From contig JAUWEG010000001.1 of NCBI GenBank assembly GCA_030608385.1, forward strand, positions 23,479-87,478: a stretch of DNA of 64,000 nucleotides. The letters run 5' to 3'. Numbering within the stretch: the stretch's first letter is position 1; the number at the start of each line of letters is the position of its first letter. This stretch comes from Candidatus Heimdallarchaeota archaeon (GTDB lineage Archaea > Asgardarchaeota > Heimdallarchaeia > Heimdallarchaeales > Heimdallarchaeaceae). The position numbers and the translations under genes were made by a program. Under the pieces are notes generated by a model. That model made no database searches and had not been told where the DNA came from. It saw nothing but the letters and a program-made list of their open reading frames with translations. This document shows, piece after piece, positions 8,047-30,135 of the stretch.

Positions 8047-9000
8047 TCATTTCTTCTTGGACTTTTCTTTTGGTTTTTCTTCTTCCTTACCTTCTTTCTT
8101 TGATTTGGAAGCCTTAACCTCTTTCTTTGGTTTTTCTTCTTCTTTATCTTCTTTCTTTGATTTGGAAGCCTTAACCTCTTTCTTTGATTTTGAAACTTTA
8201 TCAACTTCTTCCAGTTCTTCAAACTCGTCTTTAGGTTTCTTCTTTTTCTTCTTACTCTCTTCTTCTGTTATTTTTTCGAGTTCTTCATCGATATCTGGAA
8301 ACTCTTCTAGTTCTTCAATAACTTCTTCACTAACTTCTTCGATGATTTCAGGTTCTTCTTCTATGCCAGTATCCACTATCATGGATGTTGAAGTTGGTTC
8401 AGCTTCAATAGAAATGTCATCGGGTAAAATTGCATCTCCCCTCATGATTCGAACTTGAATACCTATTAATCCTCGTCGTATAAGGGCTGTTGCTTTTCCT
8501 ATATCGACATATCGCTCTGCAGGATCCCCTGCCTTTGCAACAAAGCCAGCTCTGAATGTTTCAACTCTTGCTCTTTGACTAGTAATCTTTCCACTAATCT
8601 TTATTTCAACACCTTTGGCTCCAATTGACATTATACGTCTAATTATACCATGAGCACTTCTACGAAAATGACGTCCCCTCTCTAGAGAAGATGCTAAACG
8701 AAATGCCATAATACGGGCATCAAGTTCTGGATTTTCTACCTCTGTTACCTCAATTTGTGGATTATCTAAATCATATTGCTCACGTAATGCTTCAGTAATC
8801 CTGTGGATGTTTCTTCCTCTTCCCCCAATCGCTAATCCTACTCTCCCCACTCTAAGAAGAACACGATCTCCTAAAGGTGTTCTTCTAAGTTCAACCCCCC
8901 CATATTCAGCATTTTTTAATTCTTCAGCTAAAAATTCATCAATTGCATTTCTTTGGTATTTTTTTAATAGATAGTCTTTTGTTGTAGGCATAATTATCAC
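8047..9000 (-). CDS. rps3: ribosomal protein uS3 with a roughly 90 aa Lys/Glu-rich C-terminal extension
   Basis: KH domain plus the uS3 C-terminal domain (GIQVRIM..., GRGRNIHRITEAL). The tail contains two copies of a roughly 20 aa unit, SKSKKExKEEEKPKKEVKA. Confidence 0.85.
   Translation of the reverse strand: MIIMPTTKDYLLKKYQRNAIDEFLAEELKNAEYGGVELRRTPLGDRVLLRVGRVGLAIGGRGRNIHRITEALREQYDLDNPQIEVTEVENPELDARIMAFRLASSLERGRHFRRSAHGIIRRIMSIGAKGVEIKISGKITSQRARVETFRAGFVAKAGDPAERYVDIGKATALIRRGLIGIQVRIMRGDAILPDDISIEAEPTSTSMIVDTGIEEEPEIIEEVSEEVIEELEEFPDIDEELEKITEEESKKKKKKPKDEFEELEEVDKVSKSKKEVKASKSKKEDKEEEKPKKEVKASKSKKEGKEEEKPKEKSKKK
8071..8186. repeat. two tandem copies of a 58-nt unit inside the rps3 3' coding region
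   Basis: The unit tggtttttcttcttc(c/t)tta(c/t)cttctttctttgatttggaagccttaacctctttcttt occurs twice in tandem. It encodes the duplicated Lys-rich peptide of the uS3 tail. Confidence 0.8.
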
Positions 9001-10634: not shown

Positions 10635-11213
10635 GTGATTAAAATGAAACAAACAAAGTCAATACAACCTCGTAAACAGAGGAAGAGTCATTTCAAAGCT
10701 GAATACCATATCAGAAACCGTAAAATGACAGCTCTATTATCTCATGCATTAAGAGAAAAATATGGTATCCGCCGTTTGCCTATACACAGAAACGATAAGG
10801 TGACAGTTTTCAAAAACAAATCACAAGACGCGGAAATTAAAGGAAAAGTCATTAGGGTTTTACCACAAAGATATGCAGTTCATATTGAGGGGCACAGTAA
10901 AGAAAAAGCAGATGGAACTATTGTCAGCTTTCCAGTTCATCCAAGCAATATTGTGATAACCTCACTAAATTTAAGAGATAAAAAGAGACGAGCTATTATT
11001 CAACGAAGGTCTAGAAAAGAAATGACTGATGAAGAATTAGCTGAAGATATTTTTGATGAAGATGAAGAGTTAGCTGAAGAACTAGAAGATTCTGATATGC
11101 TAGAAGATGAAGATTTCCTCGAAGAAGATTTCGAAGATCTTGATATGGATGAACTAGCTGAAGGAGAAGAAGAAACTCCTGACACTGAAGAAGACAAGGA
11201 GGAATCAGAATGA
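10635..11213 (+). CDS. rpl24: ribosomal protein uL24 (KOW) with a roughly 65 aa acidic C-terminal extension
   Basis: KOW motif KGKVIRVLPQR. The tail is D/E-rich (EELAEDIFDEDEELAEELEDSD...). Confidence 0.8.
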   Translation: MIKMKQTKSIQPRKQRKSHFKAEYHIRNRKMTALLSHALREKYGIRRLPIHRNDKVTVFKNKSQDAEIKGKVIRVLPQRYAVHIEGHSKEKADGTIVSFPVHPSNIVITSLNLRDKKRRAIIQRRSRKEMTDEELAEDIFDEDEELAEELEDSDMLEDEDFLEEDFEDLDMDELAEGEEETPDTEEDKEESE

Positions 11214-13865: not shown

Positions 13866-14399
13866 GTGCCTATGACAGTCAGTAAAAAACGATTGTTGGA
13901 AAAACGAAAAAAAATCAATGCTCGTAGACCTAACTTTGTACGTCAAGAAAGTTGGCGCTACAATAGAGTCAAGAAAAGTTGGCGAAAGCCCAAGGGTATT
14001 GATAATAAAATGAAAGAAAAACGCAAAGGTGTTCCTGCAATGGTCAGCGTTGGTTATAGAGGACCAAAAGCTGTCAGAGGTCTGCATCCTTCGGGTTATC
14101 AGGTAGTTCATGTTGCTAATATCTACGAACTTGATAAAGTAGATAAAGAGATTGAAGCAGTGATGATTAAACATACTGTGGGGTCTCGAAAAAGGCAAAC
14201 AATTCTCGACACAGCAGCAGATTTGGGTTTGAAAGTACTGAATCCACCAGCTCGAATTGAAGAGTTTGGTGAAGTACTCGAAGATACTATGCTCGAGGAA
14301 GAGTATGAACTATTAGATGAAGATTTCGAGTTGGATGAAGATTTCGAGTTGGACGAAGACCTTGAAAAAGATGAAAAATCAAAAGATGATTCTTCATAG
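13866..14399 (+). CDS. rpl32e: ribosomal protein eL32 with an acidic C-terminal extension
   Basis: NFVRQESWRYNRV ... SVGYRGPK core. The tail is EEYELLDEDFELDEDFELDEDLEKDE. Confidence 0.8.
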   Translation: MPMTVSKKRLLEKRKKINARRPNFVRQESWRYNRVKKSWRKPKGIDNKMKEKRKGVPAMVSVGYRGPKAVRGLHPSGYQVVHVANIYELDKVDKEIEAVMIKHTVGSRKRQTILDTAADLGLKVLNPPARIEEFGEVLEDTMLEEEYELLDEDFELDEDFELDEDLEKDEKSKDDSS

Positions 14400-16212: not shown

Positions 16213-16701
16213 ATGAGTCAAACTAAAGATAAACCAGAATTATTGGCGGTTATTCGATTAAGAGGAACAATCAACGTTCATTATAATGTTCGTGAAACTC
16301 TGAAGATGTTAAATGTTAGACGAAGTAACTATATGACTCTTGTTCCTAATACTTCTTCATATATGGGTATGCTCAAAAAAGCTAAAGATTACCTAACATG
16401 GGGTGAAGTTAGTCAAGAGGCATTGGAATACGTTCTTACCAAGAGAGGAGAATTACCAGGTAGAACTAAAATTTCTAACAAATATCTGAAAGAAAATTCC
16501 TCCTACACAACAATCAAAGCACTTTCCAAAGCATTAGTTAATGGAGAAACAAGCTTAGGTGATATAACTGGATTGAAAAAATTCTTCAGACTCCATCCTG
16601 CATCAAAAGGATATAAATCCATGAAACGCGGTTTCGCAGAAGGCGGAGATTTGGGGTATAGAGGAAATACAATCAATGAGCTAATAATAAGAATGTCGTG
16701 A
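16213..16701 (+). CDS. rpl30: ribosomal protein uL30
   Basis: LLAVIRLRGTINV ... motif. I place the start at the internal Met, which is later than the track's start. Confidence 0.8.
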   Translation: MSQTKDKPELLAVIRLRGTINVHYNVRETLKMLNVRRSNYMTLVPNTSSYMGMLKKAKDYLTWGEVSQEALEYVLTKRGELPGRTKISNKYLKENSSYTTIKALSKALVNGETSLGDITGLKKFFRLHPASKGYKSMKRGFAEGGDLGYRGNTINELIIRMS

Positions 16702-17150
16702 TATTAATGACAGTAAGAAAAAGAAAAAAGGTTAGACGAGAACGTGGATACCGTACCCATGGCTGGGGAATTGTTCGAACTCACAGAGGAAGTGGTATGC
16801 GTGGTGGAGTTGGTAAAGCTGCCCCTATGTCACATCATTGGATTCAAACAGTTAAGGGACTTCGTCCTCCTGTTGGAAAAAAAGGTTTTGTTCGTCCTCC
16901 TGCTGTAACTGAGAAAACCTATCAAATTAACATTTCTCATCTTGAAGCTATGATCCCCTCATTGTTAAATGAAGGATTAGCAGTTAAGAAAGGAGAAAAA
17001 TTTGAGATAAAACTGGAAGAACTTGGTTATACTAAATTACTTGCTCAAGGTAATATAACTACCCCAATGAGTATAACAGTTAATAAAGCATCTGAGAAAG
17101 CAATTGCCAAAATCAAAAAAGCTGGCGGTAAAGTAAACCTAATAGAATAG
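16698..17150 (+). CDS. rpl15: ribosomal protein uL15
   Basis: THRGSGMRGGVGKAAP glycine-rich L15 motif. Confidence 0.85.
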   Translation: MILMTVRKRKKVRRERGYRTHGWGIVRTHRGSGMRGGVGKAAPMSHHWIQTVKGLRPPVGKKGFVRPPAVTEKTYQINISHLEAMIPSLLNEGLAVKKGEKFEIKLEELGYTKLLAQGNITTPMSITVNKASEKAIAKIKKAGGKVNLIE

Positions 17151-22729: not shown

Positions 22730-24193
22730 TTATTTTAAGCCTAAGAATCCCGCTAATGCTGGAACAGTTTCACTTACTTGTTCGCTAGCAAATATCTCAT
22801 AGTATTGACGGAGAATACCCGTTGTTAGCAGAATACCTGTCCCCGTACCTAATGCACCTAGGAAATCCGCAAAGGCAGCTAATACGCCTATGAAGAACCC
22901 TCCTAACCATGCTGCGGTTGGGATATATCTTTCTAGGTATTTTTCTACTATCCTTGGATTTCTTCTAAATCCAGGTATTTGCATATTCGCATCAAGTAAT
23001 TGCTTCGCAACATTTTTTGAACTCATACCTGCCGTATCTATCCAGATCCGTGAGAATATACCACAAAGCGCAATCATCAATATTAGGTAAATTATAGCAT
23101 TTACTGGATACTGCGCTATCTGCTCAGGACCATATGGGGCCGTTGTATACGACGCTAAACCCGTCACAGGTGCTAATTGTTGACTACCCGTACCACCTGA
23201 TATGTCTTCCCACGTACCAAAGAATCTTACTAGAAAATATTTTAATCCAGATGCCGCACTTTTCCAATTATTCCACATCAGATTAGAAATGAAATAAATG
23301 TTTGCAAATAATGCGCTAACTAGAATTACCGGAATGTTTGAAGTATAAAGGAATTTTATTGGGTAACGAGCTGGCATTTTATATTGACTGTGTTGTACTG
23401 GGATTTCAATCTTTATGGAATCAACATAAATTACCACCGCAAATACAACGATCGTAGCTAATAGACCAATCAAATCTGGCGTTCTACCTACTCTACTGAA
23501 CGGTGTTGACAAAGTAGCATTTGGATCATCACTGAATATTGCTTGGAAGAATGCTAGAATACATCCTCTAAACCAGTTAAATCCTCCAGAGGGTTCAGGA
23601 CTAAGACTAAACATTCCATCAAAGATGTTGAACGAAACGCTTGCTGCAATAAAAAGACTGATACCGCTTCCAAGTCCATAGCCTTTTTGGATTATTTCAT
23701 CCATTAATAAAATAATAAACCCAGCTACCAGTAATTGAACCAATATAAGCATTGAAGCTTCAAATCCGATATCTTCTCCATAAGCTCCACCTAAGATATA
23801 AGCAAGAGCTTCAAAGATTGTCATCAATACAGCTAGAATCTTTTGTGTTCCAGTGTATAATGCTCTTTCCTCAGGATTCGAGAAATCAACTTTGATGATT
23901 TGTGAACCCACAAGTAGTTGCATAATCAAACCAGCTGTAACTATGGGACCTATTCCAAGTTCAGCTAGACTTCCTCTTTGGGAAGCTAGAATTGCCCTCA
24001 TCGCAAAAAATGGGTCGGTTCCTTCGTCAGAAGGTACCCCAACTAGAGGAATGTTTAACATCACTAAGTAAAGGGCCAGTATTCCGAAAGTCCAGGCTAT
24101 CTTCCTCTTAAAGGAAGGTTTCCTTGCAGGTTTTTTTACCTCAAGGGTAAAACGTTGAAACGGTTTGAATAGTAGTAGAAACTTTGATGCCAT
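22730..24193 (-). CDS. secY: preprotein translocase subunit SecY
   Basis: 487 aa with 10 TM segments. The N-terminus matches the SecY/Sec61alpha pattern. Confidence 0.9.
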   Translation of the reverse strand: MASKFLLLFKPFQRFTLEVKKPARKPSFKRKIAWTFGILALYLVMLNIPLVGVPSDEGTDPFFAMRAILASQRGSLAELGIGPIVTAGLIMQLLVGSQIIKVDFSNPEERALYTGTQKILAVLMTIFEALAYILGGAYGEDIGFEASMLILVQLLVAGFIILLMDEIIQKGYGLGSGISLFIAASVSFNIFDGMFSLSPEPSGGFNWFRGCILAFFQAIFSDDPNATLSTPFSRVGRTPDLIGLLATIVVFAVVIYVDSIKIEIPVQHSQYKMPARYPIKFLYTSNIPVILVSALFANIYFISNLMWNNWKSAASGLKYFLVRFFGTWEDISGGTGSQQLAPVTGLASYTTAPYGPEQIAQYPVNAIIYLILMIALCGIFSRIWIDTAGMSSKNVAKQLLDANMQIPGFRRNPRIVEKYLERYIPTAAWLGGFFIGVLAAFADFLGALGTGTGILLTTGILRQYYEIFASEQVSETVPALAGFLGLK

Positions 24194-24688: not shown

Positions 24689-24732
24689 TTCTGAACATTC
24701 AGAAATGAAGAGCATCACAACTTCGGGTTGTG
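24689..24732 (+). promoter_or_regulatory. two perfect hairpins in the rps13 5' leader (TTCTGAA-CA-TTCAGAA and CACAAC-TTCG-GTTGTG)
   Basis: Inverted repeats seen directly in the sequence. The second has a UUCG tetraloop. Both lie 30 to 70 nt upstream of the rps13 start. Confidence 0.3.
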
Positions 24733-24760
24733 GAATAAAAAAAACACAAAGAGTGAAAAT

Positions 24761-25204
24761 ATGTCATTTCGCCATTTAGTTAGGATAAAGTCTACAGATC
24801 TTGAAGGACATCTTCCTGTTTCTATGGGTCTTTCAAGAATAACTGGAATTAGTAATCGATTAGCTCAAGCAATTACAAAAAAATTGAATATTCCTGCATC
24901 AGAACGTATTGGTTTTCTTACCGATGTTAAAATAAAGGAAATAGAAACTGTCATCGGTGATCCCGTTACTGCTGGCATACCAGAATGGTTGGTTAATCGT
25001 AGGAAAGATCGTCAAACCGGTGGTAATATTCACATCACTGAAGCTCAACTTATTTTGCAAACCAAGCAAGATATTGAACGATACATTCGTATACGAAGTC
25101 GTAGAGGAATCAGACACCAATTTAAGCTTAAAGTCAGAGGGCAAAAGACCCGAACCCACGGTAGCAAAGGTACCACGGTGGGTGTTTCAAAGAGGAGAAG
25201 GTAA
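24761..25204 (+). CDS. rps13: ribosomal protein uS13
   Basis: The S13 N-terminus (RIKSTDLEGHLPV ... GISNRLAQ) begins at the internal Met. Confidence 0.85.
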   Translation: MSFRHLVRIKSTDLEGHLPVSMGLSRITGISNRLAQAITKKLNIPASERIGFLTDVKIKEIETVIGDPVTAGIPEWLVNRRKDRQTGGNIHITEAQLILQTKQDIERYIRIRSRRGIRHQFKLKVRGQKTRTHGSKGTTVGVSKRRR

Positions 25205-25214
25205 GGTGAAATGA

Positions 25215-26267
25215 ATGGGTGGAATACGAAGATATAAAAAGAAAATTCTAACACCAGGTCATCCTTATGATAAAGATCGAATTGAACGAGAGTTGCCATT
25301 AGTTGGTGAGTATGGATTACGAAACAAGAAAGAATTATGGAAAGCTAGAACTTTATTATCAAAAGCTCGACAACAAGCTCGTGCTCTTCTAGCTCTAACA
25401 CCTGAAATTAGAGAACAAAGAGCAACTGAATTATTATCCCGTTTAACTCGTTTCGGTATGCTTCCCCAAGGTGGGGATCTCGATTCTGTTCTAGCATTGA
25501 ATGTTAAAACAGTACTAAACCGCAGATTACAAACAGTTGTCTTTAGGAAAGGTTTAGCATCTTCTCCCTATCAAGCTAGACAATTTATTACACATAGACA
25601 CATCGCTCTAAATAGTGCGGTAGTTACAGCTCCTGGAATGCTAGTGAAGATAGATGAAGAAGAACATATTGCTTATGCACCAAGTTCTCCTTTAGTTAAA
25701 CAAGATCATCCTTCAAGACCACAAGCACCACCAACTCAAGTTGAAGAACCTCCTAAAAAGAAAGAAATCCCTAAGGGTAGAGGAAAGCCTAAACCTGAAG
25801 TCAAGCCTAAAGTTGAAGTCAAGCCTAAAGTTGAAGTTAAACCTAAACCTGAAGTCAAACCTAAAGTTGAAGTCAAACCTAAAGTTGAAGTCAAACCTAA
25901 ACCTGAAGTCAAACCTAAAGTTGAAGTTAAACCTAAACCTGAAGTCAAGCCTAAACCTGAAGTCAAGCCTAAACCTGAAGTTAAGCCTAAAACAGCACCT
26001 GAAGCTGCACCAAAGGAAAAACCTCTTGTTAAGAAACCTGCAGAGAAAATACCTATTGCACCAAAAGATGATATTTCATCGATTAAAGGTATTGGTGCTA
26101 AAACAGCAATGCTTCTCAAAGAAAATGGTTTCAACACAGTCGATAAAATTGCTAAAGCTACAGTTGAAGATCTTTCCAAAGTCCCAGGTATTGGTCCTGC
26201 TACTGCTGAAGCTATGAACAAAGAGGCTAAGAATTTGTTAGCCAAAAGTAAGGAGGAAGCTAAGTAG
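25215..26267 (+). CDS. rps4: ribosomal protein uS4 fused through an 11-copy PK(P/V)EVK repeat linker to a C-terminal tandem helix-hairpin-helix domain
   Basis: The first roughly 170 aa are canonical S4 (S4 RNA-binding domain, [10 protein letters not shown]). Then come the [12 protein letters not shown] repeats. The C-terminus has IKGIGAKTA ... [12 protein letters not shown] HhH motifs. Confidence 0.8.
25786..25989. repeat. tandem 18-nt repeat (cctaaa[c/g][c/t]tgaagt[c/t]aag), about 11 copies, coding
   Basis: Seen directly in the sequence. It encodes ([12 protein letters not shown])n inside rps4. No spacers are present, so this is not CRISPR. Confidence 0.85.
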
Positions 26268-26275
26268 GTGATTTT

Positions 26276-27031
26276 ATGAGTGAAGATAAAAAAGAGAAGA
26301 AAGAATCGGCTAAGAAAACTAAGGAAGACGTTGAAACTCCCAAAGTAGAAGAGAAAGTTGAAGCTCCTAAGAAAGAGAAGAAAACTTCCACTACTAAGAA
26401 GCAAGAAAAAACCGAACCTCCTAAAGAAGAAAAGAAAGCCGAACCAAAGAAACCCAAAGAGACCAAAGATAAAAAAGCCAAGGATGAAGCTAAACCTAAG
26501 AAAGAAGAAACTGAAGCTCCTAAAAAGGAAAAATCTAAAACCAAAGAAGAAGCTAAACCCGAAGAAAAGGCTAAATCTGAAGAGAAAGCTGAACCCGAAG
26601 CTAAACCTAAACCTGAATCTGAAGCTAGATCTAGAACAAGAAGAAGAGATTCTAAATACGGTGTAGCTCATATCTTTTCCAGTTACAATGATACTATCGT
26701 TCATATCACCGACATTTCAGGTGCTGAAACATTCAGCCGTAAAAGTGGAGGAATGTTTGTTAAAGCAGACAGAAATGAATCAAGTCCATATGCAGCGATG
26801 AAAGCAGCAAACTCAGCAGCACAAGAAGCGCAAAGTAAAGGAATATATCAGCTGTATGTACGTTATAGGGCACCAGGAGGACATAAGAATAGAACACCTG
26901 GACCAGGAACACAAGCAGCATTAAGGGCGCTAAAAAGATCAGGGATGAGAATATTAAGACTAGAAGATGTAACTCCTTTGCCTCATGATGGCTGTAGACG
27001 CAAAGGTGGCCGTAGAGGCCGCAGAATGTAA
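26276..27031 (+). CDS. rps11: ribosomal protein uS11 with a roughly 120 aa Lys/Glu/Pro-rich N-terminal extension
   Basis: The C-terminal 130 aa are canonical S11 ([20 protein letters not shown] ... [10 protein letters not shown]). The N-terminus is a histone-H1-like KKEK/PKKE low-complexity region. Confidence 0.85.
27002..27031 (+). repeat. direct repeat copy 1 (the last 30 nt of rps11 including its stop codon)
   Basis: aaaggtggccgtagaggccgcagaatgtaa. It matches 29354..29383 at 27 of 30 positions. Both copies are followed by T-rich tracts. Confidence 0.7.
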
Positions 27032-27075
27032 GTTTTTCTACATTTTTACTCTTTTTTTATTCTGTTTTTAGTTTG
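27032..27075 (+). terminator. T-rich tract downstream of rps11
   Basis: gtttttctacatttttactctttttttattctgtttttag. Confidence 0.3.
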
Positions 27076-27125
27076 ACATTATTGGTCTTTTTATTCCATT
27101 TTCTAGATAATTATATAGGATTTAA

Positions 27126-28307
27126 ATGGCAATAGATGAAAAGAAGAATTTCTCTTGTGAAATTTGTGGTCGTAGCTTTTCAAGAAAAGATGGTTTGTAT
27201 AGACATGTTCGATCAGTTCATTCTGAAACTAAGAAATACAAATGCAAGGATTGCGAGCTCTCTTTTTCTCGTAAAGATACCTTAGATCGTCATGTTAGTG
27301 ATGTTCATAAACAAATACGAAAGCATGTTTGTAATGAATGTGGAGAGAAATTCAAACAACCTGGTGCTCTAAAAAGACATATTCAAACAATGCATGAAAA
27401 AGACGTATTTTATGAGTGTCCACATTGTGATGCAGAGTTTTCTCGAACTGATTCTTTAAACCGTCATATCAATGCAGTTCATCTAAACCTTCGTCCCTAC
27501 ATTTGTAAAGAATGCGGCGCTTCTTTTAAGTTGTCAGGTCATCTTAAGGAGCACATAATATCTGTACATACAAACAAACGAATTCATGTGTGTGAGGAAT
27601 GTGGTTTTGCATTCAAGCTTCGTAGTCAGCTCAAAGATCATATTAGAGTTGTTCATCAAGACTTGCGTCCTCATGTATGTGAAGAATGTGATAAAGAGTT
27701 TCATCATGCAAGAAGTTTGAGGAAACATATAGTATCTGTACATACTGATAATCTTCCATATGTTTGCGAAACCTGTAAGAGGGGTTTTGCCGACCCAAGC
27801 AATCTATATAACCACAAAAAAGCTAATGCTTGCTGGTATACTTCTACTACAGCCTACAAATGGGAGGAATTGTGTAAAGAAATAGCAGAGGTTTTGTTAG
27901 CTGGTTTAGATTGGAAGTGGAAACCTAAGATTGATACTCCTGATATTGAAGAGCAGAGTTGGATTCAACCTGAAATAGTTGTATACTACGAAAATAATAC
28001 AAAAAGAATCATTGATGCTAAGAGATCTACTCTAGCGATATTCAAGGAGAAGGATTTGAAAGTGTATCCAAAAGTGGCTGAGAAGGTGGAGTTTTGGTGT
28101 CTATATGGAAAAGCTGAGGGGATGTTTGAAGAGGAAGAGGAATTTAAAGCAAGAAATAGTGAAGAGATTATTGCTGAGTTAAAGAAGAAGAAATTTGAAG
28201 AGAATCAGAGTTTTGTGGATAACTTGGTAATGAAAATTCAAATGCTGAGAAAAGGATTTGAATTTAAAGAACAAAAAATTCTTGCCAACTTCTCTGAAGA
28301 ACACTAA
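27126..28307 (+). CDS. C2H2 zinc-finger protein with eight tandem fingers plus a roughly 150 aa C-terminal domain
   Basis: Eight C-x2-C-x12-H-x3-5-H units with conserved F/L positions (for example CEICGRSFSRKDGLYRHVRSVH). The last finger is atypical (H ... C). Confidence 0.8.
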   Translation: MAIDEKKNFSCEICGRSFSRKDGLYRHVRSVHSETKKYKCKDCELSFSRKDTLDRHVSDVHKQIRKHVCNECGEKFKQPGALKRHIQTMHEKDVFYECPHCDAEFSRTDSLNRHINAVHLNLRPYICKECGASFKLSGHLKEHIISVHTNKRIHVCEECGFAFKLRSQLKDHIRVVHQDLRPHVCEECDKEFHHARSLRKHIVSVHTDNLPYVCETCKRGFADPSNLYNHKKANACWYTSTTAYKWEELCKEIAEVLLAGLDWKWKPKIDTPDIEEQSWIQPEIVVYYENNTKRIIDAKRSTLAIFKEKDLKVYPKVAEKVEFWCLYGKAEGMFEEEEEFKARNSEEIIAELKKKKFEENQSFVDNLVMKIQMLRKGFEFKEQKILANFSEEH

Positions 28308-28397
28308 GTGAAGATTGACTATTAAATCCTGAGTTTCTTAATTGCTATAAAAGCTGAAAACCTTTAATTTAAAAGTAATAATAGCATATATTTCTAC

Positions 28398-29318
28398 ATG
28401 TTAAACCAATCGAGATTGAGGGTTTTAAAAAAACTTCAAAGCTTTAGATATCCTTCTATTGTTGAAAGCATGATCAGAGAACGTATGGAAAAAATGAAAT
28501 ATTCCGAAATTCATGAAGGTGAATCTCATGCTCATCTCTGTTATAAAAGATTACAGGAATATGAAGTAAACATATTGCGATTGAAAGAAATACGTGAGAA
28601 GTTAGAACAAGAAAGAAAACTTGTTCTATCATTTTCCCTAAATGATTCAGAAGAAGAGATAATTGAACGAATACGGGAACTTAAGGAAAATGTTCAAACA
28701 AAGGAATCTAAAATAAAAGCAAAAGTTTCTTTACCTAAAACAGATGAAGAGATAAAAGAACTTACTGATGAAATTTCTTTATATTTCTCACAAGGATATG
28801 AGATGTACAAAACATCAATTGATGCAGATGTTAGTACTAGTCCCATTGTAGAATATTATGCAATGTTACAAATTATTAAAGCATTCATCTTACTTGAACT
28901 TGAAGTAGATACTCAAGAATTTCTTGGTGCTCATGGTTTAGAGAGAAAGAAAAATATAAACGATAACACAATATTTCAAGTGAAAACAAAAACTCATGGG
29001 GTTTTTGCTGCCTTATTACTACGTACAACTTCTTTTACAATAGAAGAGGATGGAACTCATACAAGTGAGTTACACAAATATTATACCGATTATTATCCAA
29101 AATTTGAGGACTTTGTTAATAAAAAGTTACCATATTTTAGAATTCCTGACACCTTCATTTTTCTATGGATTTTATCTGAAATAGCTCGATATCAACCACA
29201 GAAATGGAGAGAAATTTGCTCAGGAGTAAAAAACAATTGGATTGATAAAATAGATCTATTCAGAGAAGAAGCGGTACCAAAACTTTTCTTTGATTTACTT
29301 GAATATCATTGCAAATAA
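28398..29318 (+). CDS. hypothetical coiled-coil/helical protein (306 aa)
   Basis: Intact ORF that is the second gene of the repeat-flanked island. No recognisable motif. Confidence 0.4.
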   Translation: MLNQSRLRVLKKLQSFRYPSIVESMIRERMEKMKYSEIHEGESHAHLCYKRLQEYEVNILRLKEIREKLEQERKLVLSFSLNDSEEEIIERIRELKENVQTKESKIKAKVSLPKTDEEIKELTDEISLYFSQGYEMYKTSIDADVSTSPIVEYYAMLQIIKAFILLELEVDTQEFLGAHGLERKKNINDNTIFQVKTKTHGVFAALLLRTTSFTIEEDGTHTSELHKYYTDYYPKFEDFVNKKLPYFRIPDTFIFLWILSEIARYQPQKWREICSGVKNNWIDKIDLFREEAVPKLFFDLLEYHCK

Positions 29319-29353
29319 TCCATCAATCAATTTAGTTTCTACTTTGTAATTTC

Positions 29354-29383
29354 AAAAGTGGTCGTAGAGGCCGTAGAATGTAA
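29354..29383 (+). repeat. direct repeat copy 2 (degenerate copy of the rps11 3' end)
   Basis: aaaagtggtcgtagaggccgtagaatgtaa, with 3 mismatches to 27002..27031. Confidence 0.7.
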
Positions 29384-29443
29384 TTTTGTTCTTTTCTCAT
29401 TTTTTATTTTTCTTTTATTTTTACTTAGGTATAATTTTGTTGT

Positions 29444-30007
29444 TTATTCTTCTTCCTCATCTTCATTTTTGCTATCTTCATCAAACATTTCTATTGTCAG
29501 GTCAATATTTAATTTCTTCATGGTCTCTTCGGAAATTTTTCCCTTGCTATTTGATGCAAGAACAATCAACCCCCCATAATCCTCTATTCTCTGAAGTAGA
29601 GAATTAGTTTCGATATTAGCATATCTATCATGAGCATCTGTTATTTCAGTTCTCTTGCCAAAAAGTGCATCTGCTTCGTCAAAGAACAAGATCCAATCTT
29701 TGTTCTCAGCTTTGGAAAACAGTTTGTTTAAGTTCTTTTCAGTTTCACCAATATACTTGTTAAGAATAGAAGCAAGGTCCACGCGGAAAAGAGGATAATC
29801 TAATCTCACATCTAAATATTGAGTCATCGTCTTCCCTTCTGAAGATTTTCCAATAAGCAAAATCCTATAATTTTTGTCAAGATATTCTGATATGTTTTCC
29901 ACAATTTCATTTAATTGGAATTGGACTTCTGATGGCAAAACAATTTTTCTTGCAGCCTTTCTCTTCCAAAATGGGGTTATTCTCTGTATCATTCGTTTCT
30001 GTAGCAT
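29444..30007 (-). CDS. small stand-alone AAA-type ATPase
   Basis: Walker A GKSSEGKT and Walker B ILFFDEAD. The C-terminal tail is acidic. Confidence 0.6.
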   Translation of the reverse strand: MLQKRMIQRITPFWKRKAARKIVLPSEVQFQLNEIVENISEYLDKNYRILLIGKSSEGKTMTQYLDVRLDYPLFRVDLASILNKYIGETEKNLNKLFSKAENKDWILFFDEADALFGKRTEITDAHDRYANIETNSLLQRIEDYGGLIVLASNSKGKISEETMKKLNIDLTIEMFDEDSKNEDEEEE

Positions 30008-30135
30008 AGATAAAAGTCATGCTAAAACCATTTAAATCTAATCAAGATACAAGAAAAAAATAGAATATCCCAATCAGATAGAATTGAATAATTTTAAATA
30101 ATTCCAAACTAGGTTGGTTTTGTTTGTGATAACTT

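Follow-up and report, generated by a model that had tools for sequence, protein, structure and literature searches.

The 64,000-nt stretch of DNA analyzed here (the window; Candidatus Heimdallarchaeota archaeon, assembly GCA_030608385.1, contig JAUWEG010000001.1, positions 23,479-87,478 of the forward strand) encodes an extended form of the small-subunit ribosomal protein uS4. The protein consists of three modules: the rRNA-binding uS4 core, a disordered polyampholyte spacer of fast-evolving tandem repeats, and a conserved C-terminal pair of helix-hairpin-helix motifs, (HhH)2, of the type found in the RadA N-terminal domain. Statements on the genomics of the locus itself refer to this one 64-kb window of the genome. 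An earlier note on this DNA had claimed a tandem HhH domain joined to uS4 by a linker of hexapeptide repeats, and all three parts lie in one frame according to open reading frame (ORF) analysis, Tandem Repeats Finder (TRF), Pfam and NCBIfam. The core covers residues 1-173, the spacer residues 174-285 and the (HhH)2 domain residues 286-345, and the protein ends 5 residues past this domain. The features, in window coordinates, are as follows (AF2, AlphaFold2; dN/dS, ratio of non-synonymous to synonymous substitution rates):

25215..26267, plus strand: complete gene for the uS4-spacer-(HhH)2 protein, one uninterrupted ORF of 350 aa plus stop (Pfam S4 and HHH_5; NCBIfam uS4 equivalogs)
25215..25733, plus strand: archaeal uS4 core (residues 1-173), whose last residues are the invariant HPSRPQAPP (NCBIfam, PDB alignment, AF2)
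25734..26069, plus strand: spacer predicted to be disordered, residues 174-285, ~112 aa (AF2, composition)
25788..25991, plus strand: 18-nt tandem repeat array encoding (PK[P/V]EVK)x11, residues 192-257 (TRF, unit-by-unit translation)
26070..26249, plus strand: (HhH)2 domain, residues 286-345, RadA/Rad51 N-terminal-domain-like (HHH_5, AF2, Foldseek, dN/dS)
26082..26108, plus strand: HhH hairpin 1, IKGIGAKTA, residues 290-298, with G292, G294, K296, T297 and A298 invariant in 23 orthologues
26181..26207, plus strand: HhH hairpin 2, VPGIGPATA, residues 323-331, with P324, G325, G327 and A331 invariant in 23 orthologues

The N-terminal module scores far above the cut-offs of two NCBIfam equivalog models for archaeal uS4, NF003139 (218.3 bits against 138, residues 1-172) and TIGR01018 (198 bits against 82, residues 1-160). 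It contains the Pfam S4 domain (PF01479, residues 103-148, 1.7e-12) and a weaker match to the Ribosomal_S4 N-terminal domain (residues 16-98). Solved archaeal uS4 chains of 178-181 aa (6skf, 4v6u, 9fhl) align to residues 1-169 at 1e-43 to 1e-44, Thermococcus and Pyrococcus uS4 being among the PDB chains aligned to this region; the protein therefore carries ~170 residues more than the canonical archaeal uS4. The claim that a canonical uS4 of ~170 aa had been extended to 350 aa is thus borne out by both the NCBIfam cut-offs and the chain alignment. AF2 predicts a folded core, with a predicted local distance difference test (pLDDT) score of up to 94. Genomic neighborhood analysis gives the same assignment: the order uS13-uS4-uS11 is found here and in three relatives (L041, L042 and L043), and a 701-kb contig of the more distant L041 keeps SecY (minus strand), uS13, uS4-HhH and uS11 in that order. 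The gene is a bona fide uS4 of a Heimdallarchaeota-type Asgard archaeon, encoded in a uS13-uS4-uS11 operon.

The C-terminal module matches Pfam HHH_5 over residues 286-339 (4.4e-16, 59.5 bits against a gathering threshold of 27). Both hairpins follow the consensus h-x-x-h-x-G-h-G-x-x-x-A, and its Gly and Ala positions are invariant across the 23 orthologues. A full-length AF2 model, built with an alignment of 23 orthologues, predicts a confident helical domain at residues 290-345 (pLDDT 83-90), and the domain modeled alone reaches a pLDDT of 85; the compact helical fold of an (HhH)2 domain is present in the predicted model. The top solved matches in Foldseek are RadA/Rad51 N-terminal domains, with a template-modeling (TM) score of about 0.8, a root-mean-square deviation of 0.7 Å over 56 residues and 36% identity, followed by NusA AR1/AR2 domains (TM 0.79-0.83). 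Modeling, which the earlier note had proposed as a check, thus predicts a confident (HhH)2 fold that superposes on the RadA N-terminal domain. The predicted TM score (pTM) of the full-length model is 0.35, with no sign that the HhH domain packs on the uS4 core in a fixed arrangement. At the sequence level, the profile of the domain matches solved chains of a family-X polymerase (1e-9), eL32 (9L94, 4e-9), Pyrococcus Rad51 (2e-8), Haloarcula marismortui L32e (6.5e-8) and NusA (1.4e-7). Among NCBIfam models, UvrC, RadA, L32e (NF009401), Hef and RuvA rank above the NusA C-terminal repeat, and all of them cover the HhH part only. The best curated matches (UvrC, RadA, Hef, RuvA and PolX) count as DNA-binding (HhH)2 domains, and on this family resemblance the module is probably a DNA or RNA binder, as the earlier note had labeled it.

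Several more specific identities for the module were considered and rejected. A RadA/Rad51 recombinase is excluded because no RecA-type ATPase core is present; RadA models reach only 32 bits against cut-offs of 259-361, over residues 284-342. The NusA C-terminal AR repeat model TIGR01954 scores 21.5 bits against 48.15, and the haloarchaeal HhH-eL32 model NF009401 scores 29 bits against 239, over residues 284-349, which is again the HhH part only. PolX, eL32, RadA, NusA and TopoV match at similar levels, which singles out none of them as the donor of the domain. An ancestral stage with HhH as a gene of its own between uS4 and uS11 was likewise rejected: relatives that have no HhH carry uS11 directly after uS4, and the sole split case is due to a 2-nt deletion within the repeat.

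Between these two folded modules lies a spacer in which Pro, Lys, Glu and Val make up 86% of the residues (P 0.25, K 0.30, E 0.15, V 0.16), with a net charge of about +17. Residues 175-283 have a pLDDT of 41-48 and no predicted secondary structure. Predicted disorder and the dominance of Pro/Glu/Val/Lys place the spacer in the PEVK/TonB-like type, which is a compositional class and not a homologous family. TRF finds an 18-nt repeat of 11.3 copies (89% matches, 0 indels, score 282), and a super-period of 54 nt scores higher still (324). Translated unit by unit, the array yields exactly 11 consecutive PK[P/V]EVK units, which differ from one another at synonymous sites and at the P/V codon; such a pattern cannot have arisen by chance. 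The linker described in the earlier note as (PKxEVK)11 is therefore correct in its number of units and its 18-nt repeat, but the array fills only 66 of the ~112 spacer residues.

Among orthologues, the spacer ranges from 51 to 188 aa and from -8 to +22 in net charge while retaining its Pro/Lys/Glu/Val composition, and in some lineages blocks of pure Glu/Asp are inserted into it. Even where the HhH domain of a close relative is 96-100% identical to that of the window, the repeat unit is a different one: compared with (PK[PV]EVK)11 in the window, L002 has KPEV and KDVPKAEV, L003 has (VKEVPKAE)n, L004 has (EVKPKA)n and L005 has (VKPEVKPKAE)n. The window is ~95% identical in DNA sequence to contig JAUWJS010000004 (L002), yet the two sequences are distinct. 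Whether copy number varies among strains had been raised as a check, and both the number and the unit itself vary, even between genomes that are ~95% identical in the flanks.

A repeat of this kind is a hazard for assembly, and the earlier note had named an artefact in the repeat, or a frameshift separating S4 from the HhH reading frame, as grounds for dismissing the fusion. Neither is found: the frame is the same on either side of the repeat, and full-length orthologues with the same in-frame architecture occur in dozens of independent assemblies. The uS4-HhH fusion is real. The hazard itself is evident in relatives, where 15 of 29 archaeal loci (12 uS4 and 3 uL24, see below) start inside the spacer at a contig end and two loci have runs of N in the spacer. 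A 99%-identical database protein (P0001) ends after 'KPKPEVKPK' at a contig end, and in P0047 a frameshift falls where the HhH domain begins. In L042 (3100-3410), a 2-nt deletion in the repeat leaves a 227-aa S4 ORF and an intact 50-aa HhH ORF, either through an assembly error or as a real slippage allele. The count of 11 units is provisional, as it was read from one assembly and breaks or frameshifts in the repeat are common among related assemblies.

The same fragility has left its mark on public databases. Many Heimdall uS4 entries are truncated, being listed as 'partial' and ending in the spacer, and the HhH ends that have come apart from them go under the name of hypothetical protein or 'Holliday junction resolvasome RuvABC DNA-binding subunit' (P0001, P0008, P0039, P0041, P0044 and P0121-P0132 for the two kinds together). 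Both arise because the repeat spacer regularly breaks short-read assemblies. As uS4 is a standard phylogenomic marker, alignments that include it should be trimmed to the core.

The architecture extends well beyond this genome. A search of 5.8 billion proteins recovered ~40 full-length proteins of 290-403 aa with both S4 and HHH domains, whose source labels, where given, are Heimdallarchaeota, Heimdallarchaeaceae, 'Asgard group' and, once, 'Thorarchaeota'; public entries for the protein are named '30S ribosomal protein S4'. A motif scan found the uS4 core and the HhH together in 38 proteins, which puts the number of protein clusters at 38 or more. An HhH-only alignment scanned against GTDB, with one genome for each species, gave 29 archaeal loci in 22 assemblies, of which 21 carry uS4-HhH. 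The fusion is without description in the full-text literature searched on Asgard and Heimdall ribosomal proteins and HhH domains, including a 2026 review of Asgard biology. With the HhH profile, a word-indexed protein search returned mostly detached fragments of uS4-HhH genes and no new architectures, and an exhaustive HMMER search was dominated by generic multi-HhH proteins; in a Pfam scan of ten single-domain HMMER hits, the only ribosomal protein fusion was P0167 (Ribosomal_L26 plus HHH_5), a uL24-HhH protein. The earlier view of an unusual accretion on a universal ribosomal protein thus stands as far as the accretion goes, but it is no peculiarity of this genome; it is a conserved trait of a Heimdallarchaeota clade.

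In a neighbor-joining tree of the uS4 core, which is a distance tree only, HhH-bearing proteins span most of the clade, and the simplest reading is one early gain of the domain followed by some losses. Selection on the domain was estimated by the Nei-Gojobori method, in which the synonymous rate (dS) is saturated for distant pairs. In four of the five closest pairs, HhH dN/dS lies between 0.03 and 0.10, and it does not exceed 0.45 in more distant pairs; the fifth close pair (L007/L012) gives 0.80, from very few substitutions. The uS4 core has values of 0.07-0.21. Purifying selection acts on the HhH domain to a degree comparable with the core.

A parallel fusion is found on the large subunit. 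Seven Heimdall genomes encode a uL24 that carries, at its C-terminus, the same (HhH)2 domain as uS4, in proteins of 258-283 aa in which an acidic, Asp/Glu-rich spacer of ~60-70 residues precedes the HhH. The loci are:

L010, 3-758: uL24-HhH
L016, 5431-6204: uL24-HhH
L017, 3-758: uL24-HhH
L018, 3768-4541: uL24-HhH
L024, 5362-6210: uL24-HhH
L025, 1-276: uL24-HhH
L027, 3-401: uL24-HhH

These genomes fall into two lineages, A (7H_bin003, 7H_bin4, CSMAG_1088 and HM4_B41) and B (YT1_029, YT1_048 and QM1B.68). The uL24 and uS4 copies of the HhH domain are 75-85% identical within a lineage and 54-68% between lineages, with dN of 0.09-0.14 and 0.20-0.39, respectively, and each uL24 copy is closest to the uS4 of its own lineage. 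The most economical reading of these sequence distances is that the domain was probably copied from uS4 to uL24 in two independent events. Recent gene conversion between the two copies was rejected as the general explanation, because a dS of 0.4-1.6 between the paralogues is too high for it; a contribution from it is possible in QM1B.68 (dS 0.42). The fusions to uL24 point to repeated copying of the domain and to a function tied to no single docking geometry. The QM1B.68 metagenome-assembled genome (L026 and L027; JBHLQZ01), which carries both uS4-HhH and uL24-HhH, is labeled 'Candidatus Thorarchaeota'; its uS4 (P0027) groups with Heimdall-labeled proteins in the core tree, and its label or bin may be wrong.

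The remaining genes of the window that bear on the locus are:

24728..25204, plus strand: uS13, upstream of uS4 in the same operon (Pfam Ribosomal_S13, 4.6e-30)
26276..27031, plus strand: uS11, downstream of uS4 (Pfam Ribosomal_S11 at residues 129-247)
10635..11213, plus strand: uL24, 192 aa, with an acidic tail and no HhH (Pfam Ribosomal_L26)

The three genes of the operon are tightly packed, with 10 bases between uS13 and uS4 and 8 bases between uS4 and uS11, and GGTGA Shine-Dalgarno-like motifs precede uS4 and uS11 alike. The true start of uS13 is probably an internal ATG near 24761; its orthologue in L041 has 147 aa. uS11 has an N-terminal Lys/Glu-rich extension of ~125 aa (26276..26650) with an 18-nt repeat of its own (26528-26617, TRF); the protein has 224 aa in L041 versus only 131-142 aa in L042 and L043. 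An antisense ORF of 322 aa (25736..26704, minus strand) runs across the uS4 and uS11 repeats, and another of 158 aa (25741..26217, plus strand, other frame) also runs through the repeats; both encode low-complexity strings, Ser/Phe/Leu-rich or Leu/Lys-rich. The antisense ORF was rejected as a gene, being a low-complexity by-product of the repeats, and the two are almost certainly not genes.

Elsewhere in the window, uS3 (8047..9000, minus strand, 317 aa) has a Glu/Lys tail and eL32 (13866..14399, plus strand) has an acidic tail and no HhH. The ribosomal clusters are rearranged: SecY (22730..24193) lies on the opposite strand, and non-ribosomal genes separate it from uL15 (16698..17150). Directly downstream of uS11 is a C2H2 protein (27126..28307, plus strand, 393 aa) with eight tandem classical zinc fingers (zf-C2H2, 5.8e-44) joined by eukaryote-like linkers such as 'RPY.C.ECG..F', and a 389-aa C2H2 protein occupies the same place in the distant relative L041 (8247-9416). 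It belongs to a segment of ~3 kb past uS11 (about 27056..30084) that varies among close relatives while its flanks are 88-96% identical, and that also contains a YaaC-like gene (28398..29318) and an ORF for a 186-aa AAA ATPase (29444..30007, minus strand). Only about 15 nt of this segment remain in L001, and L005 lacks positions 29422-30084; the segment resembles an indel hot spot, or else a small mobile or defence island. The next conserved genes past uS11 encode an acyl-ACP thioesterase, a metallo-beta-lactamase-fold protein and DegV. A link between the uS4 HhH and rpoD was also considered, given that many archaea have rpoD after uS11 and that the C-terminal domain of the bacterial alpha subunit is of the HhH type; it was rejected, as no rpoD follows uS11 in the window.

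The reading that we favor, although tentatively, is that the extension is a flexible tether bearing a non-specific binder of duplex nucleic acid, which would keep uS4 or whole ribosomes near DNA and sites of transcription. uS4 adjoins the mRNA entry and the helicase site (PMC8116511), and the core would anchor the protein in the 30S shoulder near mRNA entry, as in other uS4. The spacer would act as a leash only, with its exact sequence, length and charge immaterial. By residue count, ~112 disordered residues could extend over several hundred angstroms, which would allow the terminal domain to explore more space than the ribosome itself occupies. This HhH domain would then capture duplex nucleic acid through backbone contacts and without sequence specificity, DNA being the likeliest target, and the tether would keep uS4, whether free, in nascent pre-30S particles or in translating ribosomes, in the vicinity of the nucleoid and of transcribing RNA polymerase. 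Such proximity would favor events that take place during transcription, whether the nucleation of 30S assembly on nascent rRNA, the coupling of translation to transcription, or the two together. A leash-only role for the spacer, with a ligand off the ribosome surface, is suggested because spacer length and charge vary freely among orthologues, because the domain works from two unrelated anchors, one on each subunit, and behind spacers of opposite charge, and because AF2 gives no hint of docking onto the core. Binding of duplex DNA is favored because both hairpins conform to the consensus for nucleic-acid binding and because the closest curated families are DNA binders.

A narrower version of the tether concerns assembly. 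The uS4 and uL24 proteins of E. coli are the primary binding proteins for the 5' domains of 16S and 23S rRNA, respectively, and nucleate assembly of the 30S and 50S subunits; S4 also accompanies RNA polymerase as part of the rRNA antitermination complex. The assembly-initiator roles of S4 and L24 and the antitermination role of S4 are said to have been described by Nowotny and Nierhaus, by Torres et al. in 2001 and by Huang et al. in 2020. The presence of the HhH domain on these two proteins would fit a role at the start of co-transcriptional assembly, an attractive form of the tether idea. The tether could in that case be an assembly device that concentrates uS4 and uL24 on rDNA chromatin or on the transcribing polymerase, a rudimentary and membrane-less counterpart of nucleolar ribosome assembly, a proposal that we regard as rather improbable.

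The same observations can be read in other ways. The HhH domain might fold back onto duplex rRNA, for example a lineage-specific expansion segment, or onto structured mRNA in the entry channel, with the spacer merely long enough to reach. The position of uS4 beside the mRNA entry and helicase site (PMC8116511) and the unusually large expansion segments of Asgard rRNAs (PMC12993045) would suit such docking. Motifs of the HhH type are able to contact the backbone of RNA, there are weak cross-hits between Ribosomal_S13 and HhH proteins, and haloarchaeal eL32 also carries an HhH domain. However, a nearly four-fold variation in spacer length and a switch in the sign of its charge are unexpected for a fixed geometry, the same domain also functions when anchored to the other subunit through uL24 and an acidic spacer, and AF2 gives no hint of a fixed HhH-core arrangement (pTM 0.35), which leaves rRNA docking unlikely, if still a serious candidate. 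The ligand could instead be a protein, such as RNA polymerase, a transcription factor or chromatin, bound in the manner of NusA AR2 and the alpha C-terminal domain of RNA polymerase. Alternatively, the domains could pair with one another (uS4-uS4 or uS4-uL24) in the style of ERCC1-XPF and bridge subunits or ribosomes in polysome organization or hibernation; the (HhH)2 domains of XPF/ERCC1 dimerize. NusA AR1/AR2 are among the best matches in both sequence (4.4e-9, with 6TQN and 6TQO among the NusA hits) and fold (TM 0.79-0.83), PDB 8xbw shows the Rad51 N-terminal domain bound to a histone tail, and the within-lineage similarity of the uS4 and uL24 copies would fit co-evolving partners. Yet both hairpins keep the full nucleic-acid-binding consensus, unlike the NusA AR domains, and the NusA C-terminal repeat model stays under its cut-off (21.5 bits against 48). 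The within-lineage similarity is more simply explained by lineage-specific copying (paralogue dS 0.4-1.6, between-lineage dS saturated), and most carriers, the window included, have the HhH on uS4 only; we consider a protein adaptor of either kind unlikely. That the extension has no function, being a neutral low-complexity tail with a passenger domain or an assembly artefact of the repeat, is very improbable and largely refuted. Low-complexity tails are indeed common on ribosomal proteins of the window (uS3, uL24, eL32 and uS11), the repeat breaks or frameshifts several assemblies, and some relatives have no HhH; the same in-frame architecture nevertheless recurs in dozens of independent assemblies, the domain is under purifying selection comparable to the core, its hairpin residues are invariant, and it was acquired again on uL24.

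Several points weigh against the tether to DNA that we prefer. The ligand is assigned by family resemblance only, and the HhH domain is near neutral (net charge about +1) and not strongly basic. Similar folds can bind protein only (NusA AR1/AR2) or histone tails (Rad51 N-terminal domain). uL24 sits at the peptide exit, far from mRNA entry, and the coupling version of the tether leaves its fusion unexplained; in the window itself, tblastn finds no second HhH, so that its uL24 is without the domain. The domain is also dispensable in some lineages: a group of complete Heimdall uS4 proteins of 204-236 aa without HhH is nested among the carriers, and two uS4 proteins of ~300 aa have a long Lys/Pro/Ala tail but no HhH.

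Whole folded domains are rarely gained by universal ribosomal proteins in free-living prokaryotes, and the carriers here belong to the Heimdallarchaeia, the archaeal class held to have given rise to eukaryotes. The domain that was added comes from a class that normally handles DNA, and its leash is long enough to reach past the ribosome. The uS4 and uL24 fusions together suggest a physical link of ribosomes, or of ribosome assembly, with the chromosome or the transcription machinery, and they bear on whether and how archaea couple ribosomes with transcription (PMC8116511).

Among known systems, several share one or another part of this design. The nearest precedent is haloarchaeal eL32 (1JJ2 chain X, 1S72 chain Y, 9L94 chain Q; NF009401), in which one HHH_5 (HhH)2 domain is joined to an archaeal ribosomal protein through a spacer; the uS4 HhH profile matches its residues 7-57 and 15-65 (4e-9 and 6.5e-8). 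eL32 differs in its large-subunit host, in the N-terminal rather than C-terminal position of the HhH, in the phylum of its carriers and in having no long tandem-repeat spacer. To our knowledge, the HhH of H. marismortui eL32 is not ordered in 50S crystal structures. The best fold match is the RadA/Rad51 N-terminal domain, also Pfam HHH_5, with the same helix order and two hairpins; whereas RadA/Rad51 has a RecA-type ATPase core, uS4-HhH has none and is hence no recombinase. The N-terminal domain of Rad51 binds DNA. The AR1/AR2 domains of E. coli NusA share a similar (HhH)2 fold, a flexible connection and a place in the transcription and translation machinery, but, unlike the uS4 HhH, their hairpins are degenerate and the domains bind proteins.

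Other likenesses are of design or composition. In the bL12 and P1-P2 stalk, a globular domain on a flexible, ribosome-anchored hinge sweeps a large volume and captures ligands. This is a design analogy only, with no homology, and the stalk differs in belonging to the large subunit, in recruiting translation GTPases and in its short Ala/Gly-rich hinge. Titin PEVK and the (Glu-Pro)/(Lys-Pro) spacer of TonB are repeat-built, extended and unstructured connectors of alternating charge, which the uS4 spacer resembles in composition only, with no homology implied. E. coli S4 in rRNA antitermination provides a precedent for uS4 at the transcribing polymerase, although there the core itself binds and no extra domain is involved; we know of nothing comparable in archaea. 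Set beside these systems, uS4-HhH is a lineage-specific domain accretion on a ribosomal protein, a known kind of event, and it is real, conserved and under selection.

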